40,000 nucleotides of DNA from the NCBI RefSeq assembly GCF_004799665.1, contig NZ_CP031310.1, positions 200,887-240,886 on the forward strand, in the 5' to 3' direction. The position numbers were made by a program, and so were the translations under genes. The notes below the pieces were generated by a model. It was not told the origin of the DNA and did no database searches. It saw only the letters and a list, made by a program, of their open reading frames with translations. This document shows positions 18,869-40,000 of this stretch, piece by piece. Source of the stretch: Halapricum salinum (GTDB lineage Archaea > Halobacteriota > Halobacteria > Halobacteriales > Haloarculaceae). Position 1 is the stretch's first letter, and every line of letters begins with the position of its first letter.

Positions 18869-18906
18869 GTAGCAAGGAGGGAAACAGTCGAGAAGGTCGG
18901 TCTCTC

Positions 18907-24621: not shown

Positions 24622-24701
24622 CCATTATGAGTTATCCTATTGGTAAATACCTTTCGGAGATCTCATAATGGTCTCTGATTAGACCGTTAGGACTAATCAG
24701 A
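24622..24701. promoter_or_regulatory. Two inverted repeats in a divergent intergenic region
   Basis: ccattatgag (24622-24631) pairs with ctcataatgg (24662-24671). tctgattag (24674-24682) pairs with ctaatcaga (24693-24701). They lie between the 24539 (-) and 24723 (+) gene starts. Confidence 0.4.
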
Positions 24702-24722
24702 ATGGAACTGAACGATTGAGTA

Positions 24723-24956
24723 ATGCCCGACCGTGACGAAGATTCTGGCCGGTATACCGGCGAGTACTCTACTGAAGATTTTCTTAATGCCATCAGTGAC
24801 AAAGAAGAGATGGCAGGGACGGGCGATATTGCCGATCATGTAGGTTGTGCCCACGACACAGCGTATAAGCGACTCCAGCAGATGGAAAAAGATGGATTAG
24901 TTTTGTCACGAAAAGTAGGGAACACTCTCCTGTGGACACGTCCCGAAGATAATTGA
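24723..24956 (+). CDS. Small winged-helix DNA-binding protein
   Basis: The 77-aa ORF reads ...MAGTGDIADHVGCAHDTAYKRLQQMEKDGLVLSRKVGNTLLWTR, a typical small haloarchaeal wHTH. Confidence 0.65.
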   Translation: MPDRDEDSGRYTGEYSTEDFLNAISDKEEMAGTGDIADHVGCAHDTAYKRLQQMEKDGLVLSRKVGNTLLWTRPEDN

Positions 24957-25136
24957 TCGCTTATCTTTTTCAAAATATGTCCTCTATCTATTCGATAATG
25001 CCTCCATCATCGCATCGTATACTCGAAGGGGTCATGCGACTCATTCACCGTTCCCAGCCCTCATTTCTGTAAAGTCCACACTTTATTATTTAAAGTACAG
25101 GCTTTGCTGTGTTCTATGGCTCCCTGAACACGATAG

Positions 25137-26666
25137 TTACACTTTGTCTGCTAATTCGAGAACAGGGATCGTTTTCTTATTCTCATCCCCATACGTCACC
25201 TCGTTATTGCTGAAATCGAAGCGGATGGGTTTGCCGAGATAGGAGGACCGCTCGATCTTGGTCAAAGCGTCCAAGTCGCCGAGCTTCCAGCATATGAACC
25301 GGTCGATATGAGTCAGTGGAGTCTCATTTTCGAAGAAATCACTAAGCTTGACCTGTAGTGCTGCGTTCTTGTATCCCTCATCGGTGTCAACGATAGCATT
25401 AACCTCTTCGTCCAATCGGAAGTCCGCTATCTCAAGGGTCTCTGGTGATCCATTAGCGCTGTACCGTTCTAATGCTGCGATGACCTCTGCCGGATTCGAC
25501 GGGGAGAGTCCACCTTGGTCTTTGGTATGCTGGAGGCGTTCTTCGAGTGAGCTTCCCTGCGACTGGATGCTGCGTTGCTTGTTCTCCAGCTTGCGACGTT
25601 CGATATAGTTCCTGTACCAAGAATCTTGACACACTTTTGTCATATACCGATTCAGTTCATCAGTGATGGACTGGTAGACGTCGCCAGACTTGTTCCGAAT
25701 CTTCTCCCGGTTAGCAGAGAGTTCGAGGTCTTGGCAGTTTGCGATGAAGAAGAAGTGGAAGAACTCGTTGTCTGCTCCGATCGCATCGTTGTAGCGTTCG
25801 ACCTTGATGTGATCTTTCGCCAGCCAGATACCGAACTGTGCTGAGTGCTTACCATAGGTCGGCAGCTTATTCCGTGCTTCCTTTCCACCGACCATCCCCA
25901 CGACTTCGATCGTTAATTCGCGGCTATCGTCAAGGGTGACGGTCAGCTCACGGGGCGGGTAATGCTTGCACATTTCTTCCGCAACGAACTCGCCCTCTGG
26001 ATCCCGGTTTTCGGGCGGGAACTGTAGGCGGTTGTCGGTCTCAATCTGATCCTGGGTATCGTCGATTGTCGGCGACAACTCAACGTTGATGTCCATCTCG
26101 TGGAAGTCGTCGCCGAAGTGCCACGCGGTGGAGCCGCCGATCGTCTTCCATTTGATGTAGTGCTCAATCTTGTTGTAGGTAAGCTTTCGTGGGTCGAAAC
26201 CCTGACCAGCACGGAACCCATGTACTTCGATTCGGGTTCGGGACGGTTCGTCGCTCTCCGTCTCTTCGATGGAGTACGTGGGTAGTTCACGGTCGTTCAG
26301 TTTCGCCCACGGCTGGTCCATCACCGACTCAATCCGCGTCCCATCTGTGACTGTCTCAACCCGAATCTTGTCGCTTTTGTAGTAGATCTTGGTACCGTGG
26401 CCCTTGTATCCGATTGCGTCGTCCTTGTTGGAGTTCCCGAGATCGAAGAACGACGACAGGTCGTCTTCATCCATTCCATGGCCATCATCCTTGATGATGA
26501 GAGTGTTCCGTCCCTCGGCATCCTGCTCGATCTTGATATCGACCTGCGTCGCGCCTGCGTCGTAGGAATTGGATAGTGCTTCTCTGATAACTTCCAACGG
26601 GTCCTCGAAGTCGCTCGCTATCTCGATGAACTCGTTGACTTCGTTGACTTGTGGTGTCTTATGCAT
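25137..26666 (-). CDS. GHKL-superfamily ATPase (HATPase_c_3 / MORC-Hsp90-like N-terminus) with a large unknown C-terminal region
   Basis: The motifs are an N-box (VIREALSNSYDAGA), a G1 box (IIKDDGHGMD) and a G2 box (IGYKGHGTKIYY). Its ATG (26666) overlaps the stop of the upstream TGT-like gene (26659) by 8 nt. Confidence 0.8.
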   Translation of the reverse strand: MHKTPQVNEVNEFIEIASDFEDPLEVIREALSNSYDAGATQVDIKIEQDAEGRNTLIIKDDGHGMDEDDLSSFFDLGNSNKDDAIGYKGHGTKIYYKSDKIRVETVTDGTRIESVMDQPWAKLNDRELPTYSIEETESDEPSRTRIEVHGFRAGQGFDPRKLTYNKIEHYIKWKTIGGSTAWHFGDDFHEMDINVELSPTIDDTQDQIETDNRLQFPPENRDPEGEFVAEEMCKHYPPRELTVTLDDSRELTIEVVGMVGGKEARNKLPTYGKHSAQFGIWLAKDHIKVERYNDAIGADNEFFHFFFIANCQDLELSANREKIRNKSGDVYQSITDELNRYMTKVCQDSWYRNYIERRKLENKQRSIQSQGSSLEERLQHTKDQGGLSPSNPAEVIAALERYSANGSPETLEIADFRLDEEVNAIVDTDEGYKNAALQVKLSDFFENETPLTHIDRFICWKLGDLDALTKIERSSYLGKPIRFDFSNNEVTYGDENKKTIPVLELADKV

Positions 26667-27918
26667 AGGTTGTATCTGTTTCCTCGAAGTATGGATTAAT
26701 CCGTTCGTTGATCAGCTGGTAGGCGAACTTGCGGAAGCCTTTCTGGTCCTTCACGGCCTCCTCTAAATACTCAGCTACCCGTTCTTTGTCTGCCTCAGCG
26801 ATCAGTTGACGGAACTTGCGAAGTTCCCTTTGCTGAACCGCGAGATTGTGGGCTGCCACCGAGCCGAGGATGTCCTTCTGATACAGGTCGTCCATCTCGT
26901 TCCGCATCCGTGCTCGGTGGAAGTCGTCGTTACAGATCCGGCATTCACAGTCGTCGAAGTTCGCTTCATCTATCGGAACTGTCTCGAACAGGTTGACGCA
27001 ATACTTCCCGTTGATCGCTTGGTGTAGGTAGGAGGCAGAATCAAAGGTATCAGCCCCGACAGCAACGAGTAGCGGCATTGCGTTCCCCGAAATTCCTAAT
27101 ACGTGTAGAGGGAGGTCGTCATACCCTCGCTGTTGCATCTCCCGCTTACAGTCGGATACTGCTTCGACGAGAACCTCAACGTTGTCTTTTCGCGGTACGA
27201 GGCTACCTAACGCAATCCCATCGAACGCTTCAGGGATTGGTTCTGCAAGTTCGTCTTCAATGAGGTCGAAGGATCGTTCGAGCATCGCTTCATAATAGCC
27301 ATGCACTGTGAGGTAACAGGCCCCGTTAACCTCGTCACGACGCTCTGCGAACCGGGCAGCGTTGGCGGCTGTTTGCTCCATCTTTTCGATCCGCTCCTCG
27401 AACTCGTCATCTGGATGGATGGGGTGGTCCAAATTGACCACGATGTCTGGTCCTAAGTCTAGCTGTATGTCTAGCGCCTTATCCTGGTCAATATCCTTCT
27501 CGAAGTCCTCACCTTCTAGGCCACCCTGCTTTAGGATTTTGTAGCCGCCGGAGTCTGCGAAGATCATCCCGTCATAGTCGCTGAAACAGTCCCACTCGCG
27601 GATCTCGTTGTCGAGATACCATTCCAGCTTCTTCTCCCGAATCCCGTAGTCGGCCAGGGAGGAAATCGAAGTCATCACACCGTTGAAAAGGTCACTGTAG
27701 TCTTCACCACCGGTGACTTCGTTGTCGTGAGCAAGGAACTCCTTGATCGTACGGTGGACCCCGCCACCAAATAGCGCGCCCTCGTTACCGCCGCCGTAGA
27801 AGTTGATCACCGGGAACAGGTGTGGGGTTTCCAGGGTACGGTCATTAATCTGGAGCTGGCCACGTCGTGCCTCGCCTGCCTCCGCAACGACATCGAATGA
27901 GGCCATACTATCAGTCAC
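26659..27918 (-). CDS. tRNA-guanine-transglycosylase-family protein without PUA domain (DpdA-like candidate)
   Basis: The N-terminus is ArcTGT-like (ARRGQLQINDRTLETPHLFPVINF). The catalytic Asp motif is IFADSGGYKIL and the second Asp region is HVLGISGNAMPLLVAVGADTFDSASYL. The zinc motif is CECRIC (CxCxxC). The start is the GTG at 27918 or the ATG at 27906; either way it is within a few nt of the upstream stop (27911). Confidence 0.82.
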   Translation of the reverse strand: MTDSMASFDVVAEAGEARRGQLQINDRTLETPHLFPVINFYGGGNEGALFGGGVHRTIKEFLAHDNEVTGGEDYSDLFNGVMTSISSLADYGIREKKLEWYLDNEIREWDCFSDYDGMIFADSGGYKILKQGGLEGEDFEKDIDQDKALDIQLDLGPDIVVNLDHPIHPDDEFEERIEKMEQTAANAARFAERRDEVNGACYLTVHGYYEAMLERSFDLIEDELAEPIPEAFDGIALGSLVPRKDNVEVLVEAVSDCKREMQQRGYDDLPLHVLGISGNAMPLLVAVGADTFDSASYLHQAINGKYCVNLFETVPIDEANFDDCECRICNDDFHRARMRNEMDDLYQKDILGSVAAHNLAVQQRELRKFRQLIAEADKERVAEYLEEAVKDQKGFRKFAYQLINERINPYFEETDTTYA

Positions 27919-28372
27919 CGTGCACTGGAATGGAACGGCCGCTGGAAACCAAGTGCTTCAGCCGCTTTCCCTTCATTCCGATACCGGTGCCTTCGATATA
28001 GTCAACGGGTACATCAACGGCAGATTCAACCCCATCGACAGCTGGAAGATAGTCCTTTCCCAGATTGATCCATACGTTGTCATACCCGTTAGTAGTGACT
28101 TTGCTGGCAATAGCGCTGACGACTTGGTCGTTCAGTTCGTCAGCACGTTCTGTGTCCATCCGACGGTCATAATATCCAATTTCCTGATCAGGTTCCACTA
28201 CTCCGTGCTCCGCGGATATAATCATAATGTCAATTCCAGACTGAAATCGACCCGTGCGCAATGCCTTCTTTATAATCCTGAAGAAGTATCCATCGTACAA
28301 ATCGAGAGCAGGAACCGGTGTATCCACCTGTTCCTTCGTTGCAGAACACGATTGGACTAATAACGACGCCAT
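27911..28372 (-). CDS. Small conserved-looking protein, DUF6884-like (function unknown)
   Basis: MASLLVQSCSATKEQVDTPVPALDLYDGYFFRIIKKAL...IMIISAEHGVVEPDQEIGYYDRRM. The SCSxxK...PA..LY.G..F...ISA.hG pattern resembles DUF6884 and the Cys-Lys region of DUF5591. This is pattern memory only. Confidence 0.5.
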   Translation of the reverse strand: MASLLVQSCSATKEQVDTPVPALDLYDGYFFRIIKKALRTGRFQSGIDIMIISAEHGVVEPDQEIGYYDRRMDTERADELNDQVVSAIASKVTTNGYDNVWINLGKDYLPAVDGVESAVDVPVDYIEGTGIGMKGKRLKHLVSSGRSIPVHGD

Positions 28373-28455
28373 ATACTCTGCTGATCGTATGAGGAGACCT
28401 TAGTTCTTGGGGATAACCACTAGATGTCTGGAGGCTGGTTGGTTACGCGTTACCG

Positions 28456-30351
28456 TCAACTGGTAAACCGACCAACGAGCTCGTCGATATTTTCACTGCG
28501 GAAATGCTCGGTCAACTGAAGAGCTCGCGGATCAGATGGGTATATTTCACCGCGGCCATACCGGTTGAACGCCGTATCGATAGCACGTCGGTAGGCTTTG
28601 TTCGTGGTGTAGGCTATAATTTGGTCAAATTTCTCACCGTACCGGGTCAGGTAACGAGCAAGTCGGTTCGCAACAAGTTCAACTTGGTCGTCATCGGCAG
28701 TCGTCAATACATACTCGTAGCTCATCACCGGGTCAGCCTCTTCGAAGTCCTCAGGTACCGGCCCGTATAGCCCTGAGATGGACACCTTATGATATCGCTC
28801 ACGGTAGTCCTCAAGCCGGGAGAGGACAGCCTGATGTGTCCGTGACTTCGAATACGGCTTCTCCTGACTACAGGGTAGAATCAGTAGTACATCTGCCTCG
28901 CTCGGCGGCTGATACTCGTCGTGCTGGAGGATATCGAAGTCATTTGGCCCGTGTTTCAGCGAGATGGTCCGTTTCTTCCGTGTCGTGTCCTCGACTCCTT
29001 CGAGGAAGCTAGATAGCTTGGTCTGGAACGTCTCGTCATCCGGTCCGGCAACTAACCCTTCGTAACCGATGTCTGCAAGTTGTTCGCGGAGCTCTGGGTT
29101 GTGTAGCTGAGCCCGCTTCAACGCTTTCTCAACGATATTCTTTCCCTGTGCGAAGTTAGCAACACGTTCGAGCAAACTCCCATCATCAATGGCGTCACGA
29201 ACTTGTTGCATCTGGCGGCTGTACAGCTCAAAGTTATGATGAGCTATCTGTGCGTAGTATTCACTCTTGAAGTGAGTCCCGTGTTCACCCTCAATAGGCT
29301 TGTTACTGATATCGGATTCCAGAAGGGCGTGCCGCATATCACCGAAGTGGATGTTCTGGCAGGCTTGACAGTTACAGGGCCATTCCTCCCAATCATCAAT
29401 TTGGTCCAAACTGACTCGTTGCCAGCTATCGGGGTGGATGAATTTCTTATTGCGGGCCGCATACTGATAGCTTCTCGAATCAAACGTATCGACGCCGAGG
29501 AGAGACAGTAGAGGACAGAGCCTTCCGCTTATGCCGAAGACGTGGAATGCGATTTCGTCGTAACGGTCCTCGGGTATCGCGTCTCTTGCCCCTTGAACGA
29601 TATCGACCAAGGTATCTGGAGAGCTGCTGAGGGGAACAAGTGAACCCAGGGCGAACCCCTCGAAGGCCTCAGCAAGTTCATCGGCGCGGTCCAGAAATTG
29701 ACTGACATACCAGTTGACATCCTCGTAGTTGTGGCCGTGTATGGCCACATACATAGACGGCGTCTCCTCCAGCTCGCGCTCGTCGAGCAACTGGAGAGTT
29801 TCAACCGCGTTATCGATACTCTTCTCCATCCGTTCAGTGGTTTCTTGCTTATTCAGGTTCTGTGGAATCGGAAAGTCCAAGGTGGCAATGATATCCGCGC
29901 CGTAGTCAATCTGCAAGTCCAAGATGCTCTCTGGATTCGTGTAGATATCCCAGTCGTTCGCACTACCGCCTTCGTCAGGCGTCTGTCCGAACTTCGTCGA
30001 GTTCATCAACTTAAATCCGCCCGAGTCGATGAATAGCGGTTGATCAAACCCGGGCTCAACGTCACTCTCCTCGAAATGCTGTTTGAGCGGCTTCTCTCGC
30101 CACTCTTCCAGATTGTCAGGGGTGAGATTGTAGTCGAGAAACGACATCGCTTGGAACATAATCCCCTGGACGCTGTCGCTCTCAAAGAGGTGCCGACGGG
30201 TATACCGCCAGATACCACCGGATTCTGTTGTCGTCCCTCCAATCAAATTTACAACAGGTAGAAGCTCGGGCGTCTGGATACAGCCGGCGGGCGTGTCTAT
30301 TTCTCCTCGGCGGCCGTATGAAGCCTTTTCAAGAGTCTTGAATGCCGACAT
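28456..30351 (-). CDS. TGT-domain protein fused to an ArcS-type (DUF5591) domain; archaeosine-synthase-like paralogue lacking a PUA domain
   Basis: The TGT core is RRGEIDTPAGCIQTPELLPVVNL, LFIDSGGFKLM, FHVFGISGRLCPLLSLLGVDTFDSRSYQ, with zinc motif CNCQAC. The C-terminal domain has LLILPCSQEKPYSKSRTHQ, which fits PC-x3-KPY-x2-S-x2-H exactly. The ATG is at 30351; the track starts one codon earlier at a TTG. Confidence 0.82.
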   Translation of the reverse strand: MSAFKTLEKASYGRRGEIDTPAGCIQTPELLPVVNLIGGTTTESGGIWRYTRRHLFESDSVQGIMFQAMSFLDYNLTPDNLEEWREKPLKQHFEESDVEPGFDQPLFIDSGGFKLMNSTKFGQTPDEGGSANDWDIYTNPESILDLQIDYGADIIATLDFPIPQNLNKQETTERMEKSIDNAVETLQLLDERELEETPSMYVAIHGHNYEDVNWYVSQFLDRADELAEAFEGFALGSLVPLSSSPDTLVDIVQGARDAIPEDRYDEIAFHVFGISGRLCPLLSLLGVDTFDSRSYQYAARNKKFIHPDSWQRVSLDQIDDWEEWPCNCQACQNIHFGDMRHALLESDISNKPIEGEHGTHFKSEYYAQIAHHNFELYSRQMQQVRDAIDDGSLLERVANFAQGKNIVEKALKRAQLHNPELREQLADIGYEGLVAGPDDETFQTKLSSFLEGVEDTTRKKRTISLKHGPNDFDILQHDEYQPPSEADVLLILPCSQEKPYSKSRTHQAVLSRLEDYRERYHKVSISGLYGPVPEDFEEADPVMSYEYVLTTADDDQVELVANRLARYLTRYGEKFDQIIAYTTNKAYRRAIDTAFNRYGRGEIYPSDPRALQLTEHFRSENIDELVGRFTS

Positions 30352-30354
30352 CAA

Positions 30355-30494
30355 ATGACCTGTGTAGTAACTCTATCGTTGCCCTCAATTAACTTCTCGT
30401 TCTCTAAATTGTCATATCTCCAATCCATCTCCGGAGTCACTATAACTTTCAGCGAGTGGTTCAAAGTTAAGTATGCCACAGATAATACCACAGT
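30355..30494. promoter_or_regulatory. AT-rich divergent promoter region between the arcS-like operon and queDEC
   Basis: This is a 140-bp intergenic spacer. agttaagtat (30465-30474) is centred about 26 nt upstream of the queD ATG, consistent with leaderless geometry. ttaatt on the minus strand (about 30386-30391) lies 32-37 nt upstream of the arcS-like ATG. Confidence 0.4.
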
Positions 30495-30962
30495 ATGGCT
30501 CAAAACCTATCTGGAGAACACTCCCTCACATCAGAGGATATCTCCGAGGCTGAGCGAACCTTACACGTCGGACGTGACCGGCCGATTCGTCTAAGTACAG
30601 GTCACCGGATTCTACACCATGACGGCAAGTGCAGCCGTCCCCATGGGCATAACTACAAAATCAGCGTCTCGATAACTGGCACCCTAACCAGCGAAGGGTG
30701 GGTCATCGATAAGGGAGACGTCACTTCTGTATTATCCGAGTGGGATCACCGATTTCTCGTGGAGAAGGGCGATCCACTGATCGAGGCTTTTGAGGACAGC
30801 GGCGAAGGCGATGCCCTAATCGTGCTCGACCAGCCCCCGACAGCCGAGGTGATGGGGATCGTTCTTGAACGACGGCTGGAGGAAACATTACCGGAGACGG
30901 TCAGTAATGTCGCAGTTGAGGTTCGAGAAACCGGTGAGCTCGCTGCCGGAGGAGCTCTATAG
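30495..30962 (+). CDS. queD: 6-carboxy-5,6,7,8-tetrahydropterin synthase (QueD)
   Basis: LSTGHRILHHDGKCSRPHGHNYKISVSITG...GWVIDKGDVTSVLSEWDHRFL shows the PTPS/QueD Cys-His-His zinc/catalytic pattern. Confidence 0.88.
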   Translation: MAQNLSGEHSLTSEDISEAERTLHVGRDRPIRLSTGHRILHHDGKCSRPHGHNYKISVSITGTLTSEGWVIDKGDVTSVLSEWDHRFLVEKGDPLIEAFEDSGEGDALIVLDQPPTAEVMGIVLERRLEETLPETVSNVAVEVRETGELAAGGAL

Positions 30963-30966
30963 AGCA

Positions 30967-31749
30967 ATGCCGGTGAATTCGGATGTTCCAACGGTTGAGG
31001 AGGGTTCTACTGGTACAGAAACGAAGGACGGGCTGCCAGTGAATGAATTGTTCTACTCGTTACAAGGCGAGGGGAAAATCGCCGGGATGCCGAGCGTGTT
31101 CGTTCGGACGAGTGGTTGCAATCTCCGGTGCTGGTTCTGTGACTCGTTCCATACCAGCTGGGATCCGACCCACGCCTGGCTCGATGTCGATGCTGTCATC
31201 AATCGTGTCACCGATTATAAGAAAGCAAACCACGTCGTCGTGACCGGCGGTGAACCATTGCTACACGACGAGACGACCAATCTGTTAGACCGCCTCAGCG
31301 ATGCTGGCTACCATACTACCGTCGAAACCAACGGTACGATCTATCACGATACTTCCATCGATCTAGTGAGTATCAGTCCCAAACTGGCGAGCAGCACCCC
31401 GACTGCGGCAAAGGACCCACAGGGCGATGGGGAATGGGCAGATCGGCACGCTGATCGACGGATCGACATAGACACTCTCTGCCAGCTGGTGGAGGCCTAT
31501 GATTTCCAGCTGAAATTTGTAGTTACAGATAGAGATGATATGGCCGAGATCAACCGGTTAGTTGATCGGCTTCGGGACGCTGCAGATGCGGTGATTCGGG
31601 ATTCAGACGTTTTGTTGATGCCGGAGGGTTCGACCCGTGAACGATTATCGGAAACCCGTGAACTGACTGCGGAGGTAGCGATGGAGTACGGATATCAATA
31701 CACGCCTCGACTTCACGTTGAGCTCTGGAACGACGCACCCGAAACATAG
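30967..31749 (+). CDS. queE: 7-carboxy-7-deazaguanine synthase (QueE, radical SAM)
   Basis: LPVNELFYSLQGEGKIAGMPSVFVRTSGCNLRCWFCDS carries the CxxxCxxC cluster. It is followed by HVVVTGGEPLL. The ATG at 30967 is 4 nt after the queD stop; the track start at 30865 overlaps queD and is rejected. Confidence 0.88.
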   Translation: MPVNSDVPTVEEGSTGTETKDGLPVNELFYSLQGEGKIAGMPSVFVRTSGCNLRCWFCDSFHTSWDPTHAWLDVDAVINRVTDYKKANHVVVTGGEPLLHDETTNLLDRLSDAGYHTTVETNGTIYHDTSIDLVSISPKLASSTPTAAKDPQGDGEWADRHADRRIDIDTLCQLVEAYDFQLKFVVTDRDDMAEINRLVDRLRDAADAVIRDSDVLLMPEGSTRERLSETRELTAEVAMEYGYQYTPRLHVELWNDAPET

Positions 31750-32477
31750 TGTCAAATTATACAGCCATGACGACTACTCAAGGAGATAGCACGGATAGCG
31801 CGGTTGTCCTTGTATCGGGCGGGATGGATAGTGCGACTGCAGCTTTTGAGGCGAAGCACAGGGGATATGACTTGTACTTCCTCCACACAACCTACGGCCA
31901 ACAAACAGCGGACAAAGAGTCAGAGTGTGCCCGAGAATTGGCCGACTATATGGATGTCACGGACTTCCTTCACATCGAAACAGACCACTTAGCTCGGATC
32001 GGTGCTTCCAGCCTTACTGACGAGAACATCGATGTGGAAGAAGTCGATCTCGATAGCGATGAGATACCGTCAAGCTACGTTCCGTTCCGGAACTCGAACC
32101 TGCTATCAATGGCCACGTCGTACGCTGAAGCAAACGACTGTGGGGCCATCTTTATTGGTGCACACAGCGAGGATTACTCCGGTTACCCGGATTGCCGCCC
32201 GGAATTCTTTGATGCGTTCCAGCAGATTATAGATATCGGGACGAAACCAGAGACGTCAATCGATTTGGTGGCACCGTTCGTGGATTGGACGAAAACAGAG
32301 ATTGCGGAGCGTGGTCTAAATCTCGGTGTTCCGTACGAGCTTACGTGGAGCTGTTACCGCAATGAGGAACCAGCCTGTGGTACTTGCGATGCATGTGCCT
32401 ACCGACTCAAAGCATTCCAAGACGTAGGAATGAAGGATCCGATTAGATATCGAGAGCGCCCTAGCTACAGTGACTGA
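31749..32477 (+). CDS. queC: 7-cyano-7-deazaguanine (preQ0) synthase (QueC)
   Basis: The PP-loop is AVVLVSGGMDSATAA. The C-terminal zinc cysteines are WSCYRNEEPACGTCDACAYR. The GTG at 31749 overlaps the queE stop by 1 nt; the alternative start is the ATG at 31767. Confidence 0.88.
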   Translation: MSNYTAMTTTQGDSTDSAVVLVSGGMDSATAAFEAKHRGYDLYFLHTTYGQQTADKESECARELADYMDVTDFLHIETDHLARIGASSLTDENIDVEEVDLDSDEIPSSYVPFRNSNLLSMATSYAEANDCGAIFIGAHSEDYSGYPDCRPEFFDAFQQIIDIGTKPETSIDLVAPFVDWTKTEIAERGLNLGVPYELTWSCYRNEEPACGTCDACAYRLKAFQDVGMKDPIRYRERPSYSD

Positions 32478-32538
32478 TAAGACGTGAAGCTGTTTAAGAG
32501 GCAAACAATTCTTATTGGTGCGTCTTAGTGCTCATATC

Positions 32539-33012
32539 ATGGGCGAATTTGCGGACGAGGTCGTTAAGCGGTTGAAAGATCATTTAGCACAGTTCTGCAC
32601 ATCTTATAAGTGGGACACTGAATACCTTATTGCAGAAACACCAGTTGACATCGCAGGAATCGATGGTGATCGGTACGTGTTAATCGAACTCGAATGGCGT
32701 CGGGCGGACCCAGCTGACAATGCCGCGAAGATTTTTCGCCATCTCAGTACGAGGGAGATTCCTGCTGACCAAGTTATAATTTTGCAGTTATTTACCAACC
32801 ATTACAATCTCATTTCGGACGGCGTCTCGTCCAAGCGAAAGAACGCGGAATTCGTGGGCAAAACTGCCGCTGGTACTATTGACTATCTCACCTACCAACC
32901 CCTTGATTTTGACATCGATCCACCAAGATCGGGTGAGGAACGCCCCAACAAGTGGGAAGAGATAACTGATGATGTATCTGCAACAATCTCGTCAATAGTT
33001 AGTTGCTCCTGA
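32539..33012 (+). CDS. Hypothetical protein appended to queDEC (weak PD-(D/E)xK-like pattern)
   Basis: The ATG is at 32539 (MGEFADEVVKRLKDH...). The segment ETPVDIAGIDGDRYVLIELEWRR loosely resembles a D...ExK nuclease core. This is a weak resemblance. Confidence 0.45.
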   Translation: MGEFADEVVKRLKDHLAQFCTSYKWDTEYLIAETPVDIAGIDGDRYVLIELEWRRADPADNAAKIFRHLSTREIPADQVIILQLFTNHYNLISDGVSSKRKNAEFVGKTAAGTIDYLTYQPLDFDIDPPRSGEERPNKWEEITDDVSATISSIVSCS

Positions 33013-33066
33013 CGATGTATTGATTAACTCCTGTGTGAGTCTCCCTGAGGAACAGTGCTATACTGG

Positions 33067-33390
33067 TCAATCGGATTGATCACCAGTAAATTGGGCTTCG
33101 TTCTTAACTCTCCCAATTGCACCGTTCAGTCCATAAATAAGTGTAGCTGCGACATCGAAAGCTTCCCTCCGCTGGAGCTTTGAGATGGGCCTTGTTACAA
33201 ACTCTTCCCCGTCGGTATTGATACCGGTGATAGGAATCACTGAATAATCGTCGTCACCCATCGTTCCATCGAGCCGAACTAAGATCGTATCATCTTCGTC
33301 ATAAACCCATTCGATATAATAGTCGTCATGGATGTGCTCAGTCCATCCTGAAGGGTAATAATCGATATGCTCGGTTTCACTTTCAGGCAT
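33067..33390 (-). CDS. Hypothetical acidic protein
   Basis: The ORF is 107 aa from the ATG at 33390 (MPESETEHIDYYPSGWTEHIHDDYYIEW...). I recognised no family. Confidence 0.4.
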   Translation of the reverse strand: MPESETEHIDYYPSGWTEHIHDDYYIEWVYDEDDTILVRLDGTMGDDDYSVIPITGINTDGEEFVTRPISKLQRREAFDVAATLIYGLNGAIGRVKNEAQFTGDQSD

Positions 33391-33393
33391 CTT

Positions 33394-33428
33394 AGTATGT
33401 AAAACAGTGATTCCAAAGTATGTAAAAC
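33394..33428. repeat. Perfect 12-bp direct repeat agtatgtaaaac x2 (23-bp period)
   Basis: The copies are at 33394-33405 and 33417-33428, immediately upstream of the 33390 (-) start. On the minus strand they read GTTTTACATACT, which is TATA-like. Confidence 0.5.
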
Positions 33429-33539
33429 CGGTCGTCTGTCCTTCTGGTGTCGGGCTTCCAAGGATCAAATGTTAGAGTGAGAAATTTATTGACGACGAAC
33501 CGGGCAACATATCTACTGAAGATCACTCATATACTTCCT

Positions 33540-33980
33540 TCAAAGCCCTAATTCGACGTCTAAATACGTAGCTACGCTTCCGTACTCATTCTCCATAATT
33601 TCACAGAGCTCACGGTTGACCGTCAGACCGCTGTGAGTGATATTTGCAGATCCTACGTACACCAATTCGGGGCCCACGACGGCTTTCGCATGTAGATCAT
33701 CTACGGTAGTCATCGAGGTGTTTCCCATACGGGAGACAAGTGAGCGCATGTAGTCGTTGTGTTGTTCGCCAGTGCGAACGTAGAAATCGACATCCGTGTT
33801 CAATTCTCTAATCGCCGCGGACAGGGAAAGTCGGCGGCTCGACAATTTATCGGTGAGTGGAAAGCGCAGTTCCACATCGCTGAGCCAGGGCGAACAGATC
33901 GCCATACGTTGGGCGTGAACGAGAGAGTACCCGATAAAGTACGATAGCCCACTAGAGGGTAAAGAAAATGCTCGTACCAT
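33540..33980 (-). CDS. Phospholipase-D-family (HKD) nuclease, DrmC/Nuc-like
   Basis: VDDLHAKAVVGPELVYVGSANITHSG fits HxK...GSxN. The N-terminal AQRMAICSPWLS is typical of PLDc_2. The start (ATG at 33980 or GTG at 33989) overlaps the helicase stop (33952) by about 29-38 nt. Confidence 0.72.
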   Translation of the reverse strand: MVRAFSLPSSGLSYFIGYSLVHAQRMAICSPWLSDVELRFPLTDKLSSRRLSLSAAIRELNTDVDFYVRTGEQHNDYMRSLVSRMGNTSMTTVDDLHAKAVVGPELVYVGSANITHSGLTVNRELCEIMENEYGSVATYLDVELGL

Positions 33981-36900
33981 CGATCTCACCTCCTGGAAGC
34001 ATCTCTCGCTCGATCATTTGAGACGCGGCATCTTCGGAGGGAACTCTTTCGATCAGCATCTCTCGGAGACTTTCAAGCAAGACGTAGCTCAAGCTTTCCG
34101 ACTGGTCGTGTGCCGATATGCACTCCGCTAAGTGTAGATTCTCGACACAACCGTCGATATCCGGAGAGAAAAACAGGGATTTCACCCGATCAAGGTCTCC
34201 AACATCGTGTGGCATTTTTCTGACCGCATCAGCAGGGAATTCATTGTTGCCCGCTACCTGCTCTTTTGAGACGGTCTGTTTGATTCGGTATGCCGTTTCG
34301 GTTGAGATGCCTTCCTCACTCGAAAGCTGCCTAGCTCGATCAATCGAGGAGAGCACTTCATCCACGATCAGATCGGCGACATCGGGGAAGATCGGAGTTT
34401 CATCCATATCACGGACGACTTCTCGAACGGTGTGTTCGTCTGGGTCTTCCGGTATTCGTTCCACGAAACCCTCCGACGCCCAGAGTCTCTCGTTGATGAC
34501 CTGTGGATTATAGCAGATATGGGTCAGCGCGTTTAGTGCCGTACCCGGATCGGTCTGGAGGTCTTCGTAAACCAGATCAACGATGCCTTGGCCACCCTGA
34601 GACCGCTCAAACACATACACCTCGTCGGCTTCGTGATCAATCCCGTAGAAGAGCATACTTGGATTGACTCCGCCAATATCGGCGACCAACTGGGTGAAAC
34701 AGTGCGCCGCTGTATGCCGAGCCACTTCATTGAGTGATAACTCATTCAGCGACTTGTAGCGACGTACTCGTTTCTTAGTCTCTTCGTCAATGTCGGACAC
34801 GAAGTCGCTCAGGTCGAAAATCAACCCTCGGGTATCGAGCGAGAAACCCAAGGGCCGATTCCCGGTCGTGATTTCCTGAGAAATCCGATCCTCGCCGGTG
34901 AATATGAACTCATTTTCATCACCAACGGGTCGTGCCGGTGTGATTTCAAGGGATACTCCCGTGAGAGTTACTTTCCCAGTAATGTCAGCGAGGGTTGCTC
35001 TCCCCCGTGTCGCTTCCTCTTGACGCCCTTCAAGTCTAGTCTCTACTTCCGGGTTAGAATGGATTTTTCCGAACGCTCTATCGTTATGACGTAAGCACCG
35101 ATCCTCTTTAAGAATCTGGAAACACTCGGGACAGTACCTGACGATATTCAGAGCGCGACCGCCGCTGAGATCTTCTATATCGTCAAGAGTGATAGAGTCC
35201 GGAGTAATCATGCCGTCGCGCCGGTCACCGGGGACGTCCTCAAAGGAGAATCTGACCCCGTCATCATCAGCAATGGTTTCGGGTAGGTAGGCTTGCAAAT
35301 GACCTGCTTCTTGTTGATACTCGCTACGGTACGGAGCATAGGTCTGAACGAGTTTGTCGATAGACTGTTCGTCGCCACTCTCATCGTCCTCCCCATAGAA
35401 CACCGTGAAGTACTTCCCAGCGTCTTGGAAGTAGTTCGGGGGAACGTACCAGACGGTGCCTTCAAGCGAACGGTGGTCAACTTTCAGGAACCGGTCATAA
35501 TAATACGCCCCTCGAAGGAGATGCTTGACGTAGTACAGGCTCTTATCGTTCTGTTCAATAGAGTTGTATTCGCCGAGCTGAGTCAGCGTCTGTCTGAGAT
35601 AGTAGATCTGTTTACGCTTCGTTGCCGTCTTATCGAGCTCCTCGCTTTCAATCGCGCGGCTGGCTGTATCAACGCGGTCAACCACCTGATCAACGGACGT
35701 CGGCAGTTCTGGAAGGTTAACAGACACGTATTCTCGGTCAACGACACGCCGGAGTCTCTCGACGTCACTCGTTATCCCGTAGAGATCAGGGATCAGATCG
35801 TCTAATGCTTCGACTTGTTCAGTAGGCGGAGTTTCAGCGAGGTTTGTGACGGAGGTTCGAAGCTCTTCTAGAGTTGATTCCAAGGCATCGAGCTGTGATT
35901 TGACCTTCTCTTCGGTACTGACATCGGAATCTTCGATTTCGTCGATTAGCACTTGTCGCTGGCTACAGAATTCCAAGAAATCAGTTCTTATCTCTGAGAC
36001 TAGAGACCGAGCCAAGTCTTCTCTTTGCATAGACTGCCCAACCTGATCCTCGATGAGATCTGAAATCTCAGGCTGTGTCACGTCCTCCCTAAGCTCGGAC
36101 AGAACCTGATCTACAGTCTCAACCGGCTCCTCTCCATGTAATGCAGGGAGCTGACTCTCACTCACGTCAATTCCGAACTCTCGGCGCAATACAGCTGCAG
36201 GTTCCGTGATGAACTCGTAGTACTGTTTGTAGCCCAGTTCTGAACAAAGGAACTGTTCGAGGAACTCTTCCTTCCGGTCAATTGACCCAGAGAACCACTC
36301 TTTCGAGACAGCTGTTGATGTTTCGTAGAACTTCTCGAACTGGTCGTGGATCCAGGCAATCACGTGATTATCCGTCTTCAATGGCGTTCGGATTTCAGAC
36401 CCGAGGAAACGGTCGGCACGATAGAACATATTCGCGTCCTGAGTGAGATCCGAGAGGAATACGACAATGTGTGAGTCGGTGTCTTCCTTCCGCGCTGCTC
36501 GTCCCGCACGCTGAATGAATGACGACAGATCCCACGGCGTCCGATACTGCGTGACGATAGTGATCTCACCGACGTCAATCCCGACCTCAAGGAAGCTCGT
36601 CGAGAGCAGCAGGTCGCTCTCGGCTGTTGCAGCAGCGTCGAACCCAGCGTCTGAGTAGACAGATTCGAAGCGAAGTGAAGATTCAATGAAGTCGCAGTCC
36701 ATCTCCTTAGCTACCCGATCCCAGTTAGAGTAATCGCTTCCAGTTCTGTGATACCGCCAGAGTTCGTTTGCTCGATCAGCGTCCTCCAGTTGCGCCCTCT
36801 TTTGGTTCACTTGGCTTATACTGTCGATGAATGAGAGGATTTTCCCGCGCTCACCGGTCTCGCTGTTCAAGAGGCTATGTCCAAGCAACATCAACTGCTG

Positions 36901-38028
36901 GATGGCCATCGATGAGACCCCAGGACCTTCCTCCGACGTTTTGAGGAAGTAGTAGTGCTCCTTGTCCTCGTGGTCCGTTCGGAAATCGGAGTCAGGCGGC
37001 GCGACTGATTCAACTCGTCCACTTGGAACGGGAAAGAGATCAGTAGCAAATCGCTGTGGATCATCGACCGTCGCGCTTGAGCCTAGCCAGAGCAGCGAAT
37101 GGTCCGTTATCGCCTCGATATTTTGTGCTATATTTGCAGTATGTGCTCCTCTGAGCCCGGTGTACAGGTGGACTTCGTCGAATACAATCGTATCGGCCCG
37201 GTCAATGATGTTGTAGTTCGGTTTGAGTGAGAATAGCTCCAGAGATTCTAACGTCGTCAGAAGAATGTCCGGTCCAGGCTGATTTTTGATATCAGTCCGA
37301 TTAAGCAGGACCTCCCGATCAGAGAAGGAGTGTGCATCATTGTTCTCGCAAACCAGGCGGTAAGTCGAACTTCCTCCTTGGTAGGTGAATGAGTGAGTTT
37401 CGTCGTCTCCACACCAGCAATCGGCGAGCTTGAATCGACGCGTGCCATGCTGATTAGCAAAAAATGCGTCTTTCCTTTCAACCTCTGATGACGTATACGG
37501 TGTGTTGCTGGTCCATACCCCAACAGAAAGGCTAGTGTCGTGCTCTGTTCTAAGGTTGTACAAGTGTTCTAGAATCCGTCCGAGTTGGTCCTGTAGGAGA
37601 GCCCGACTCGGATAGACGACGATTGCCAAGTCCTGTTGATCTTCTGCTAACAGCTGATAGAGTGGGCCGAGAAACGCTTCTGTCTTTCCAAAGCCTGTGG
37701 GTGCCGAGAAAATCGCGCCACGCGAGTTGTTGGATGACCGTCGATCCGCATCGAGGTCGCGGATCAGTTGCCAGCTTTCGACCTGAAAGTCGAGTGGCTT
37801 GAAATCGAAGAGTTCGATGATGTCAGCAACGAACTGATCGTCACCAGTGTATTTACTCGTGGCTCGTCGATCCTGTGGCCTCTGTGTGTACTTGACACCA
37901 TCCGTGATGTAAGGAGGATTGTCTTGGTCAGCATCGAATATCTGGGTGTTTGAGAGAAAACCGCGAATCAGCGGTCGGATATCATCAGGGATTCGTGAGG
38001 CATTCGAGTTCCGATCAAAGTACTTCAT
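33952..38028 (-). CDS. Large DExH-box superfamily-2 helicase with a DUF1998 (MZB)-like C-terminal domain
   Basis: The helicase motifs are I (SAPTGFGKTEAF), II (VFDEVHLY), III (GSSATV) and VI (FIQRAGRAARK). The C-terminal region has CPECFQILKEDRCLRH, RHTAAHCFTQLV...VYVFERSQGGQGIVD and DIDGCVENLHLAEC. I prefer the ATG at 38028 to the TTG at 38064. Confidence 0.82.
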   Translation of the reverse strand: MKYFDRNSNASRIPDDIRPLIRGFLSNTQIFDADQDNPPYITDGVKYTQRPQDRRATSKYTGDDQFVADIIELFDFKPLDFQVESWQLIRDLDADRRSSNNSRGAIFSAPTGFGKTEAFLGPLYQLLAEDQQDLAIVVYPSRALLQDQLGRILEHLYNLRTEHDTSLSVGVWTSNTPYTSSEVERKDAFFANQHGTRRFKLADCWCGDDETHSFTYQGGSSTYRLVCENNDAHSFSDREVLLNRTDIKNQPGPDILLTTLESLELFSLKPNYNIIDRADTIVFDEVHLYTGLRGAHTANIAQNIEAITDHSLLWLGSSATVDDPQRFATDLFPVPSGRVESVAPPDSDFRTDHEDKEHYYFLKTSEEGPGVSSMAIQQLMLLGHSLLNSETGERGKILSFIDSISQVNQKRAQLEDADRANELWRYHRTGSDYSNWDRVAKEMDCDFIESSLRFESVYSDAGFDAAATAESDLLLSTSFLEVGIDVGEITIVTQYRTPWDLSSFIQRAGRAARKEDTDSHIVVFLSDLTQDANMFYRADRFLGSEIRTPLKTDNHVIAWIHDQFEKFYETSTAVSKEWFSGSIDRKEEFLEQFLCSELGYKQYYEFITEPAAVLRREFGIDVSESQLPALHGEEPVETVDQVLSELREDVTQPEISDLIEDQVGQSMQREDLARSLVSEIRTDFLEFCSQRQVLIDEIEDSDVSTEEKVKSQLDALESTLEELRTSVTNLAETPPTEQVEALDDLIPDLYGITSDVERLRRVVDREYVSVNLPELPTSVDQVVDRVDTASRAIESEELDKTATKRKQIYYLRQTLTQLGEYNSIEQNDKSLYYVKHLLRGAYYYDRFLKVDHRSLEGTVWYVPPNYFQDAGKYFTVFYGEDDESGDEQSIDKLVQTYAPYRSEYQQEAGHLQAYLPETIADDDGVRFSFEDVPGDRRDGMITPDSITLDDIEDLSGGRALNIVRYCPECFQILKEDRCLRHNDRAFGKIHSNPEVETRLEGRQEEATRGRATLADITGKVTLTGVSLEITPARPVGDENEFIFTGEDRISQEITTGNRPLGFSLDTRGLIFDLSDFVSDIDEETKKRVRRYKSLNELSLNEVARHTAAHCFTQLVADIGGVNPSMLFYGIDHEADEVYVFERSQGGQGIVDLVYEDLQTDPGTALNALTHICYNPQVINERLWASEGFVERIPEDPDEHTVREVVRDMDETPIFPDVADLIVDEVLSSIDRARQLSSEEGISTETAYRIKQTVSKEQVAGNNEFPADAVRKMPHDVGDLDRVKSLFFSPDIDGCVENLHLAECISAHDQSESLSYVLLESLREMLIERVPSEDAASQMIEREMLPGGEIDGTSIFFTL

Positions 38029-38086
38029 GCAGTCGATTTGTTGGAGATGGACACGATGCCGCAATCAATCTTTCCACGAGAGACGA

Positions 38087-38761
38087 TCATGAGAGGGTCA
38101 CTTCGAGATAGTCTGCGAGATCGGACTCATGGAGGCGATTGAGTTCCTCTTCTGAGAGCGCTGCCAACGTTAGCCGTTCGTCGTCTAATAACCGATCAAC
38201 GAGCTCATCAAGCGGTGTATCCCGGTATGGGCCAAACAGAGCGTCCTTTGCCTCCTCTAGTGATTGACGCATAAAGTGACCGTACTCTCTGGCCTCCTCT
38301 TTCCGCTGGTCGATTTGATCCGCTTCAATCTGTGCCTCCCAGTTCCAGTTATCGAGGAGGGTATCGAGCGCATCTAACTTGTCTTGATCTACCCGCTCAA
38401 CTCGCTGGTTCAACCGAATCATGCCTCGGACAGTGTTGTGGATGTCGATTCTCGCTTGGTGAACGAAGTTGTTAACCTCCCTCCGTTGAGCTTCGACAGC
38501 TTCGCGGGTTTCGGGAAGTCGTTCTGCGAGAGCATTGTAATCGTCCTGCTCTAACAGAGATCTAGCCTCTTCGACCGCGTGTTTCGCCTCAGAGTCTATC
38601 TCAACTTCAGTCCGGAAGAAGGCTTCAGCAAGAACTCGTTCGAGAATCGTTTCCTCCATCGTTTTTGCGAGCTCGTCTAGTTCTGATTCCAGGCCTTGTC
38701 GCCGGTGCTGTTCGTAAATCGTCTCTAGCTGTTCCTGAAACGTACTGGAATTAGCTGACAT
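38087..38761 (-). CDS. Hypothetical coiled-coil protein
   Basis: The 224-aa ORF is E/R/L/A-rich and looks helical throughout. Its start overlaps the stop of the upstream gene by 11 nt. Confidence 0.55.
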   Translation of the reverse strand: MSANSSTFQEQLETIYEQHRRQGLESELDELAKTMEETILERVLAEAFFRTEVEIDSEAKHAVEEARSLLEQDDYNALAERLPETREAVEAQRREVNNFVHQARIDIHNTVRGMIRLNQRVERVDQDKLDALDTLLDNWNWEAQIEADQIDQRKEEAREYGHFMRQSLEEAKDALFGPYRDTPLDELVDRLLDDERLTLAALSEEELNRLHESDLADYLEVTLS

Positions 38762-40000
38762 AGTGATCGCTCACCTCCTTGAACCGCTCACCGAGACCTC
38801 CCCTGTGTCCACCGTTACTGCTCGCACCATCGATTGGAACAGAACGGAACCGTTTCACGACTGGTGTGGCTGCCAACTTCAGAGAGATCAGTGCTGCCTG
38901 AATCTGATCTTGGGTGTTTTCCATACGGAGAGTATCGGCAGTATCAGCGGCCTCAACAGCCTTATCGACATCTGCTTGAGAGAAGTCAACGAACTTCGTT
39001 AGCTCCTGTTGGAGATCTGGATTCACGTTATCATAGGTTCTGAGATTAGACACGAGTTCGGAAACTCGGGTCATATTGAGCGTGGAGAATTCCGAGTTGA
39101 TCTCCTCTATCAGTTCACGGTCGTAGCCGTGGTCCGCTACCTCTTCGAGAGCTTGGCGTACGTCGTACATCGTATCCGCAATCGACCGGACATAAGCCTC
39201 CTGTCCGAATCGAACGCGGCTATCTATCTCTGCGATGTATTGCCGACCGAGCATGTCGAGAACCTCGTACGGCGGGTTCCGACCCAGCCGTCTCCGGATC
39301 TTCGGAACGTCTAGACTGCCCCCGGAGACGCCCAGTAGTTTTCCCACCATAGCTTCGATGTGATCGGCGGAGTCCATCGCTGTCTTGATGTGGTCGTACT
39401 CTTCCTGCGAGAGGATCTCAGTAATCTGTTCTTCGAGATGCGGATCAACCGAGAAAGCGTCGTCCTCACTGAAGCGTTCATTAATCGCGGTCGCATCGAT
39501 GTTGCGCCACGGAGAGTCAAGCATCACCAGATGAACGTATGTAGCTAAGACGAAGTCCGTGAAGTCATAATCTGCACTCCCTTTGTAGAACACCTTCTCC
39601 CCGTTAAGATATTCCTCAATCAGCATTTGACGCCACTGTAGGGCGTAGTACATCAACTGAGTCCCACACTCTGTGAGAAGCGAATCAACGTCAGCACTCC
39701 GCGGTTCCTCTACCCGGCGGATTCCGTATTTGAGTATCTTCCGGAGGTCAGATCTTCTGAAGTCACGTCTGTCAAGCAGAATCTGATCTATTTCCGGTGA
39801 GTCATCACTCTCAACGTAGACGAATGGATCCTTCTGACTGCTAAGCCGATATTCAAGTTTGGTTCCTTCGTAAAGTTTGAACCCGTCCGTGAGATGTTCG
39901 ATAGCATCCCTGAGCCCCTGTCGGATGAAGCGGTTTGTCTTAGCGTATTCTTCTGGATTTTCGAGCCAAGAATCCACTAAGCCGTTGTGTTTCTCGATTA
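38751..40000 (-). CDS. Hypothetical protein, 5' end probably outside the window
   Basis: The track starts it at the GTG at 39977, but the frame stays open to the window edge (…IEKHNGL-VDSWLENPEEYAK…). It is at least 408 aa, acidic, and I recognised no motif. Confidence 0.55.
   Translation of the reverse strand, partial: IEKHNGLVDSWLENPEEYAKTNRFIRQGLRDAIEHLTDGFKLYEGTKLEYRLSSQKDPFVYVESDDSPEIDQILLDRRDFRRSDLRKILKYGIRRVEEPRSADVDSLLTECGTQLMYYALQWRQMLIEEYLNGEKVFYKGSADYDFTDFVLATYVHLVMLDSPWRNIDATAINERFSEDDAFSVDPHLEEQITEILSQEEYDHIKTAMDSADHIEAMVGKLLGVSGGSLDVPKIRRRLGRNPPYEVLDMLGRQYIAEIDSRVRFGQEAYVRSIADTMYDVRQALEEVADHGYDRELIEEINSEFSTLNMTRVSELVSNLRTYDNVNPDLQQELTKFVDFSQADVDKAVEAADTADTLRMENTQDQIQAALISLKLAATPVVKRFRSVPIDGASSNGGHRGGLGERFKEVSDHYVS

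Follow-up and report, generated by a model that had tools for sequence, protein, structure and literature searches.

A probable BRIGADE Type I locus, related to Dpd and free of methyltransferase genes, on a low-GC island of Halapricum salinum

Which kind of system is formed by the genes for 7-deazaguanine synthesis, base exchange, helicases and a nuclease that are packed between position 25137 and the end of a 40,000-nucleotide stretch of Halapricum salinum DNA (the window)? An earlier note, made from the letters of the window alone, had read them as a new archaeal defence system of the DISARM/Druantia type, in which a Dpd-like module replaces the methyltransferase. Our analysis points to another assignment; we consider, with a probability of about 0.75, that the locus is BRIGADE Type I, a restriction-modification system that is related to Dpd, has no methyltransferase and sits on an integrated island of low GC content. 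A 7-deazaguanine DNA mark serving as self signal, joined to helicase/nuclease restriction that works without a methyltransferase, is the best-supported reading; this functional idea of the earlier note is kept, while its DISARM/Druantia assignment is given up.

BRIGADE Type I was described in September 2025 by Bell et al. (Koonin among the authors) by comparative genomics only, was detected exclusively in halophilic archaea, and in the words of its authors "remains to be characterized" (bioRxiv 10.1101/2025.09.15.676423). The belief that the present gene combination was undescribed therefore fails, because the system had already been published from genome comparisons. A literature search returned no other paper treating it; a 2026 genome-mining preprint on 7-deazapurines and a 2026 paper on BREX are silent on it.

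Modification cassette and preQ0 operon

The modification side of the locus comprises the following features:

25137..26666, minus strand: GHKL (MORC/MutL/Hsp90-like) ATPase, 509 amino acids, last gene of the cassette (Pfam HATPase_c_3, 9.8e-15)
26659..27918, minus strand: TGT2, stand-alone TGT-family transglycosylase, 419 amino acids, candidate DpdA analogue (Pfam TGT, 7.5e-30)
27911..28372, minus strand: DUF6884 protein, 153 amino acids (Pfam DUF6884, 1.4e-13; PADLOC PDC-M57A, 5e-10, and DpdC, 1.8e-4)
28456..30351, minus strand: TGT-DUF5591 fusion (ArcS-like), 631 amino acids, signature gene of the system (Pfam TGT, 1.6e-28, and DUF5591, 1.7e-19)
30355..30494, no strand: divergent intergenic spacer of 140 bp with 40% GC (island about 52%), separating the modification cassette from queDEC
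30495..30962, plus strand: QueD (6-carboxytetrahydropterin synthase), 155 amino acids (Pfam PTPS, 6.1e-19; best NCBIfam match QueD, 68 bits against a cutoff of 89)
30907..31749, plus strand: QueE (radical-SAM 7-carboxy-7-deazaguanine synthase), 280 amino acids (Pfam Radical_SAM; NCBIfam QueE models)
31824..32477, plus strand: QueC (7-cyano-7-deazaguanine synthase), 217 amino acids (Pfam QueC, 1.5e-73; NCBIfam TIGR00364, 172.6 bits, over the equivalog cutoff of 150.3)

Enzymes of the TGT family swap guanine for 7-deazaguanines. The fusion displays the motifs DSGGF109, GVDTFDS286 and CNCQAC326, and both TGT-family proteins carry DSGG(F/Y), G(V/A)DTFDS and CxCxxC, which align to the catalytic aspartate and the zinc site of the P. 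horikoshii arcTGT (1IQ8). These active-site motifs are invariant in 14 orthologues of one paralogue set and in 29 of the other; in the case of TGT2, residues D122, D290/D293 and C324/C326/C329/H357 are invariant in 29 orthologues. Neither a PUA domain nor a C2 tRNA-binding domain was detected by Pfam in the two proteins, and the fusion has just about 25 residues after DUF5591, leaving no room for a PUA domain. The reading of two paralogues with intact catalytic aspartate and zinc site and without PUA, made from the letters of the window, was thus borne out by the alignment, the orthologues and Pfam.

When scored with NCBIfam models, both TGTs do better on those for arcTGT than on that for bDpdA, although the values stay below the cutoffs (TgtA, 123 and 113 bits against 350; ArcS for the fusion, 1.5e-36 and 126 bits against 440). 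TGT2 also shows a weak match to the PADLOC model of DpdA (2.7e-6). Moreover, the fusion carries as PCSQEKPYSKSRTH, at residue 493, the exact ArcS motif PC-x3-KPY-x2-S-x2-H as defined in PMC5699537; in most Euryarchaeota, ArcS adds lysine to the nitrile of preQ0, a reaction for which tRNA architecture is dispensable (PMC11298593).

The DUF6884 protein was compared with the DUF5591 domain by hhalign, giving P=4.4e-4 and a probability of 33%, with LLVQSCSxxK aligned to LLxxPCSQxKPY plus further blocks; by BLASTP the CSxxK motif alone was aligned (E 0.46). A single-sequence AlphaFold model of the protein reached a pLDDT of 40 and was unusable. Judged from these alignments and profile matches, the protein is a possible nitrile-modifying enzyme, weakly DpdC-like and ArcS-domain-like.

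The GHKL ATPase gave an AlphaFold2 model with a pLDDT of 83, whose top Foldseek matches are Hsp90, MORC2/3/4, GyrB, MutL and TopoVI-B; the modelled fold, GHKL plus transducer, resembles those of DNA-acting clamp ATPases. We compared 33 haloarchaeal loci by tblastn with every protein of the Halapricum locus, in a view of 10 kb to each side, and the gene adjoins TGT2 in 29 of them. It is therefore taken as a member of the modification cassette and not as the restriction component it had been supposed to be, and it probably replaces DpdB; the 2026 BREX paper offers a precedent for a proposed non-homologous NTPase in the place of DpdB. Homologues of the GHKL ATPase (P0161 and P0163, 53-55% identity) were also found in Nanohaloarchaea (Candidatus Nanohalobium), ectosymbionts of haloarchaea, a hint that the cassette may have passed between symbiont and host.

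On the other side of the spacer, which is presumed to be a bidirectional promoter region, lie the genes for QueD, QueE and QueC, enzyme families that make preQ0. The top five NCBIfam matches of the QueE candidate are all QueE models (101 bits at most, below their cutoffs), and no RaSEA model stands among the best 25 of its 33 matches; the radical-SAM protein looks like QueE because its best matches are exclusively QueE models. Genes are tightly packed, with overlaps of 8 bp between GHKL and TGT2, 8 bp between TGT2 and the DUF6884 gene, and 11 bp between the genes for p224 and p969 in the restriction operon. The open reading frames (ORFs), their packing and the AT-rich divergent spacer are as the earlier note had them, and Pfam and NCBIfam agree with its calls of QueD, QueE, QueC, two TGTs, DUF6884, GHKL, a DExH helicase and a PLD protein. 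An Rfam scan returned nothing in the region of the locus.

Restriction operon, linkage and genomic setting

Within the window the restriction side is represented by four genes:

33540..33989, minus strand: single-HKD PLD nuclease, DpdK-like, 121 to 149 amino acids depending on the start codon (weak Pfam PLDc_2; PADLOC DpdK, 8.7e-12)
33952..38028, minus strand: DpdJ-like YprA-family DExH helicase, 1358 amino acids (Pfam DEAD/Helicase_C; PADLOC DpdJ, 3.4e-53)
38087..38761, minus strand: p224, conserved protein rich in E, L and R, without a family match in Pfam, PADLOC or NCBIfam
38751..40000, minus strand: C-terminal 416 codons of p969, a P-loop NTPase of 969 amino acids and candidate DpdH/BrxC analogue, whose gene runs past the window

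The 1358-amino-acid helicase has its Walker A motif at 109, DEVH at 284 and SAT at 318, and its PADLOC ranking places DpdJ far ahead of DruE (1e-20) and DrmA (4e-12); NCBIfam also matches it to DpdJ (2.4e-50). In the case of the PLD nuclease, the PADLOC value for DpdK compares with 3.4e-7 for DrmC, the NCBIfam value for DpdK is 2.2e-12, and H72-x-K74 and G85-S-A-N88 are invariant in nine orthologues; the protein is too short for an extra 4HB domain. Both genes had earlier been assigned to DrmA/DruE and DrmC, an assignment that these rankings overturn. Likewise, the DUF1998-like C-terminus attributed to the 1358-amino-acid helicase was not recovered: Pfam gave no MZB/DUF1998 signal even at E<=5, and hhalign against a true MZB C-terminus gave a probability of 2.7% and an E of 0.017, not significant, with CPxC and ERSQGGQG/SRQGGNG aligned. 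The domain sits instead in another helicase, encoded past position 40000.

The minus-strand operon extends about 13 kb past that position and has eight genes altogether. The incomplete protein of at least 408 amino acids recognised at the window's edge is real and turned out to be the C-terminal part of p969, which has a Walker A motif (GEVGTGKS at 87) and weak matches to DpdH (2e-4) and to AAA_22/nSTAND/KAP; orthologues of p224 always follow it. Beyond p969 come genes for proteins of 273 and 304 amino acids (p273 and p304), a helicase of 1578 amino acids and, at the head of the operon, an SF1B DNA2-like helicase of 1463-1489 amino acids (AAA_11/AAA_12, IGHMBP2/RecD-like). The 1578-amino-acid helicase combines DEAD and Helicase_C domains with MZB/DUF1998 and numerous CxxC zinc modules, has no C-terminal nuclease domain by Pfam, and matches DruE3 best in PADLOC (2.6e-46), a collection that in its version 2 has no ARMADA model. 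For p304 and p273 there were no family matches, and DpdG was not detected at the locus. A full-length relative of the 1578-amino-acid helicase (L001:640-5373) occurs in a Heimdallarchaeum metagenome-assembled genome (P0350, 28% identity), the sole non-halophile archaeon among the 120 best matches listed.

The start of the operon is seen in a metagenomic relative, L077, which is 96.8% identical at the DNA level over 15.2 kb. Pfam, run on the ten largest ORFs of the island portion of the window (smaller ORFs were unscanned), on the 9 kb past its end and on a further 10 kb seen in this relative, found no methyltransferase, in agreement with what had been noticed in the window. Upstream of the operon in L077 (1-5457) lie a Halo_toxin/DUF8122 gene, a dGTP triphosphohydrolase gene (NCBIfam 252 bits; 213 bits with the anti-phage dGTPase model, below its cutoff) and a gene for a HerA/DUF87 ATPase; the surroundings therefore look like a multi-system defence island.

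The two sides of the locus keep company elsewhere. Homologues of the fusion number more than 360. With each species represented by a single genome, a scan located it in 33 haloarchaeal species belonging to many genera; it is also present on plasmids of Halorubrum, Haladaptatus and Natrinema. The four-gene cassette TGT-DUF5591/DUF6884/TGT2/GHKL is complete in 29 of the 33 loci, and the DpdJ-like and PLD genes and/or the YprA-p304-p273-p969-p224 operon are found at most 10 kb away in 21-22 of them; a neighbourhood survey of this kind had been proposed in the earlier note. Order and orientation of the modules are shuffled between loci; that they are kept together despite this is a signature of functional linkage. 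On a Haladaptatus plasmid the genes for the DpdJ-like helicase, PLD, DUF6884, TGT2 and GHKL form one co-directional string, and the whole system is there, spread over 25 kb, without Que genes or an internal methyltransferase. The plasmid NZ_CP119784.1 of Haladaptatus sp. YSMS36 (L076:20001-24700) carries two divergent copies of the fusion besides TGT2, with no Que genes nearby; the plasmid-borne system presumably draws on the preQ0 pool of the host.

Cyanobacteria, Poribacteria and Chloroflexota also have full-length TGT-DUF5591 fusions, with 34-37% identity. In metagenome-assembled genomes of Microcoleus (L038:3731-10194) and of a member of Chloroflexia (L046:9322-17215) the fusion directly adjoins homologues of DpdJ (5e-58 and 1e-62, respectively) and DpdK; the latter locus also holds a DUF366 gene and a gene of the Vut_1 family, to which YhhQ, a transporter for preQ0/preQ1 salvage, belongs. 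In Nostoc (L035:9956-13835) GmrSD_N and HEPN genes come after the fusion. The genes for TGT2, DUF6884 and GHKL are absent from these bacterial fusion loci. This distribution suggests that the central enzyme of modification is the fusion, and that TGT-DUF5591, DpdJ and DpdK are a minimal unit found across domains.

With regard to viruses, the fusion family has no relatives among 2.9 million viral contigs (IMG/VR), and no close phage relatives of the TGT genes were found in 50,697 phage records. A kinship to phage or virus DpdA was considered and rejected, as the phage records yield just 21-26% identity to bacterial-type tgt genes, and IMG/VR none.

The locus is carried by an island whose left edge is marked by one gene:

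10873..12132, plus strand: tyrosine integrase (Pfam Phage_integrase, 1.7e-8), at the left edge of the low-GC island carrying the system

GC content falls from about 65% to about 52% at about 11 kb and stays near the lower value through the rest of the window, and the integrase coincides with the transition; because of this drop and the integrase standing at it, we place the locus within a large horizontally acquired haloarchaeal island. No tRNA gene, which might have served as attachment site, is present in the window. The source is a halophilic archaeon: the 631-amino-acid fusion protein is annotated as Halapricum salinum, and the p224 gene has one occurrence in the public assembly collection, on contig BBMO01000001.1 of assembly GCA_000755225.1 (Halapricum salinum).

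Two small conserved genes near the preQ0 and restriction operons have no family match:

32539..33012, plus strand: p157, conserved protein without assigned function, with orthologues in eight loci
33067..33390, minus strand: p107, small conserved protein 3' of the PLD gene, missed in the earlier note

Orthologues of p157 (48-76% identity) stand beside QueC or TGT genes in eight loci of other genera, with D37, E50, E52, R55 and K64 invariant. It was considered as a PD-(D/E)xK nuclease and rejected, the sole hint being a NucS_C match at 0.099. Those of p107 reach 70-75% identity in L006, L010 and L012. An ORF of 298 amino acids (23643-24539) gives partial matches of 38-70% identity near the cassette in seven loci (L003, L009, L016, L021, L023 and L024 among them, L032 left out of the count); this ORF and p157 could be uncharacterised accessory components.

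The island cargo between the integrase and the locus (10873-25100), of the same low GC content, includes an HxlR-like regulator (12834-13385), a protein of 724 amino acids without family match (13621-15795), an archaeal ATPase_2+DUF234 protein (16521-17912), a second integrase-like ORF of 205 amino acids (18984-19601) and several further ORFs of 276-430 amino acids without assigned function; there may be further defence genes among this cargo. In the high-GC core region of the window an orphan CRISPR direct repeat was found at 989-1018 (Rfam CRISPR-DR24, 48.7 bits); one further degenerate repeat, or two, can be made out (1052-1072 and 54-81), and no intact array lies in the window; it looks like a decayed CRISPR remnant.

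Proposed mechanism and rival readings

How the parts would work together can be outlined as follows. QueD, QueE and QueC, supplied by the host GTP cyclohydrolase, would make preQ0, which TGT2 would exchange for guanine in double-stranded DNA, aided by the adjacent MORC-like GHKL ATPase standing in for DpdB. The preQ0 nitrile would then be converted by the DUF5591 domain of the fusion and/or by the DUF6884 protein, so that the final base would be an amidine, a lysine adduct or an amide (e.g. dG+, dPreQ0-Lys or dADG). The fusion may itself insert and convert, because its set of TGT catalytic residues is complete and bacteria have it without TGT2. By analogy with Dpd, the eight-gene operon (SF1 DNA2-like helicase, ARMADA/Druantia-like YprA helicase with DUF1998, p304, p273, p969, p224, DpdJ-like helicase and DpdK-like PLD) would detect and degrade DNA lacking the mark. 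Only tentatively do we go further and propose that the cassette writes a hypermodified 7-deazaguanine unseen in cellular chromosomes (with the fusion producing deoxyarchaeosine or a preQ0-lysine adduct), that a GHKL clamp replaces DpdB non-homologously, and that BRIGADE arose from a minimal, cross-domain trio, that of Cyanobacteria and Chloroflexota.

Several points weigh against the assignment to BRIGADE Type I and the function given to it. None of the Dpd-family matches comes near its NCBIfam equivalog cutoff (DpdJ, 171 bits against 800; DpdK, 47 against 100; DpdA, 27.3 against 200 for NF041059), and we therefore regard these proteins as distant Dpd relatives, not as canonical Dpd proteins. 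The roles of TGT2 and of the fusion cannot be separated from sequence, the kinship of the DUF6884 protein to DpdC or ArcS is no more than suggestive, and we infer the DNA (not RNA) substrate, the chemistry of the mark and the restriction of unmodified DNA. Moreover, 11 of the 33 loci have no DpdJ or YprA genes in view and several of them stand beside other defence genes; the coupling may therefore be looser than that of an obligate restriction-modification pair, or the partners may lie farther off. These loci, with their DUF262/SspE-like, GajB-like, LmuB-like and PbeA-like neighbours, the Nostoc fusion beside GmrSD_N and HEPN genes, and the shielding of phage DNA from restriction by 7-deazaguanines (PMC6884629) would fit a cassette that is a free-standing DNA-hypermodification module, for example one that shields island or host DNA, and is uncoupled from DpdJ, PLD and YprA. 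We hold such independent neighbours to be unlikely, given the co-directional string with the DpdJ-like and PLD genes in Haladaptatus, the fusion directly adjoining DpdJ and DpdK in two bacterial phyla, the modules found together in 21-22 of 33 genomes despite rearrangement, and a fusion not seen in viral contigs; the view, besides, covers just 10 kb to each side, whereas the parts of the Haladaptatus system span 25 kb. As an observation on the loci where DpdJ and YprA are out of view, large DUF262/HEC-06/SspE-like ParB-fold proteins recurrently adjoin the cassette (L009:16181-18895; L011:12061-15411; L078:14819-17923). DpdB is itself an SspE-like ParB-fold ATPase, and a functional link of these neighbours with the cassette is conceivable.

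The reading from which the analysis started, a new DISARM/Druantia-type system with a Dpd-like module replacing the methyltransferase and GHKL acting in restriction, draws on YprA helicases and PLD nucleases being common to DISARM, Druantia and Dpd, on weaker but significant matches to the DrmA, DruE and DrmC models and on the lack of a methyltransferase in the stretches scanned. It is very unlikely in our estimate, as DpdJ and DpdK match best, no DUF1998 was detected in the 1358-amino-acid helicase, profile searches of the locus proteins found no homologues of DrmB, DrmD/E, DrmM or DruA-D/H, GHKL is tied to TGT2 and not to the helicases, and the combination is already published as BRIGADE. 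Hardly credible is the view that the Que and TGT-family genes are housekeeping genes which modify tRNA (G+15) and lie beside a defence operon by chance: the TGT domains are nearest to arcTGT/ArcS and the ArcS motif is intact, but the genes sit on a low-GC island with an integrase, are patchily distributed, include a fusion found on plasmids, lack PUA and C2 domains, score below the TgtA and ArcS equivalog cutoffs, and keep their linkage to defence genes in archaea and bacteria. We give just as little credence to an inverted logic, in which the helicases and PLD attack invader DNA modified with 7-deazaguanine and the TGTs are sensors or erasers of a viral mark. Haloviruses do carry 7-deazaguanines, such as the dPreQ1 of HVTV-1 (PMC6884629), TGT base exchange is reversible in principle, and Type IV-like DUF262 genes are often nearby; against this, a dedicated preQ0 operon divergently paired with the cassette favours writing, and in Dpd, the closest characterised relative, the mark sits on host DNA (PMC10164549).

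Should the BRIGADE reading be true, this would be the first archaeal restriction-modification system with a 7-deazaguanine in place of a methyl or phosphorothioate mark, and it could place an archaeosine-type base in chromosomal DNA. The locus of Halapricum salinum, a cultivated species, holds all modules including its own preQ0 operon, and is a practical starting point for experiments.

Comparison with known systems

Dpd of Salmonella Montevideo (dpdA-K) was reportedly described by Thiaville in 2016. Like bacterial Dpd, our locus uses preQ0, resides on an island and has an ATPase partner beside its TGT-family enzyme, a step that converts the nitrile, a helicase resembling DpdJ and a PLD nuclease resembling DpdK; a DpdH-like NTPase is possibly shared as well. 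In bacteria DpdA depends on the ATPase DpdB, and the conversion of dPreQ0 into dADG is carried out by DpdC (PMC10164549); in our locus no protein matches the ParB-like DpdB and the GHKL ATPase is in the equivalent position, while DUF6884 and the ArcS-like domain are found in lieu of the DUF328 protein DpdC. Both TGTs resemble arcTGT and not bDpdA, DpdD, DpdE and DpdF were not detected, and the ARMADA-like YprA helicase is an addition with respect to Dpd.

YprA-family helicases and PLD nucleases are common to DISARM, Druantia and Dpd (bioRxiv 10.1101/2025.09.15.676423). DISARM shares these two proteins and the logic of a self mark with our locus, which differs from it in having no methyltransferase (DrmMI/MII), no separate DrmB and no DrmD/E, the matches to DrmA and DrmC being secondary. 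In the case of Druantia/ARMADA (DruE/ArmC) the likeness lies in the 1578-amino-acid helicase, with DruE3 as best match and an MZB/DUF1998 domain, whereas Dru partners (DruA-D or DruH/F/G), BrxHII and PglX-like methyltransferase partners are lacking in our locus. Membership in DISARM and in Druantia was rejected on the profile ranking and the absent partner genes.

The tRNA archaeosine pathway of archaea (arcTGT, ArcS and RaSEA) has in common with the locus the TGT core, the zinc site, the ArcS motif and preQ0 as substrate; it differs in that the proteins under study have no C2 or PUA domains, that RaSEA is missing from the locus, and that the genes lie on a mobile island or on plasmids amid defence genes. 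Phage and virus DpdA modules (with ArcS, Gat-QueC or QueF) likewise place 7-deazaguanine in DNA, an ArcS homologue being linked to dG+ in Vibrio phage nt-1 (PMC6884629, PMC10516641). In contrast to those anti-restriction modules, the genes analysed here are paired with restriction genes in a cellular genome, with no close viral relatives.

The locus agrees with the description of BRIGADE Type I in its halophilic archaeal host, in its genes for 7-deazaguanine synthesis (QueD/E/C, together with the two members of the TGT family) and in its small PLD nuclease without the 4HB domain. The agreement probably extends to the pair of YprA-family helicases, where best profile matches point to one ARMADA/Druantia-like protein with DUF1998 and another of the DpdJ branch, to the large DNA2-like SF1 helicase, recognised here by AAA_11/AAA_12, and to a P-loop NTPase that plausibly equals DpdHI/BrxC, here p969 with its weak DpdH match; DpdG, likewise part of the description, was not detected. 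Otherwise we found no difference at the level of the published description. The main text of the preprint leaves the modification cassette (two TGTs, ArcS motif, DUF6884 and GHKL) undissected, and the pairing of GHKL with TGT2, the intact ArcS motif and the compact bacterial relatives go somewhat beyond it. BRIGADE was stated to be exclusive to haloarchaea, whereas the compact TGT-DUF5591, DpdJ and DpdK loci of Cyanobacteria and Chloroflexota, which are absent from the main text of Bell et al., suggest that a compact BRIGADE/Dpd-like unit also exists outside that group.

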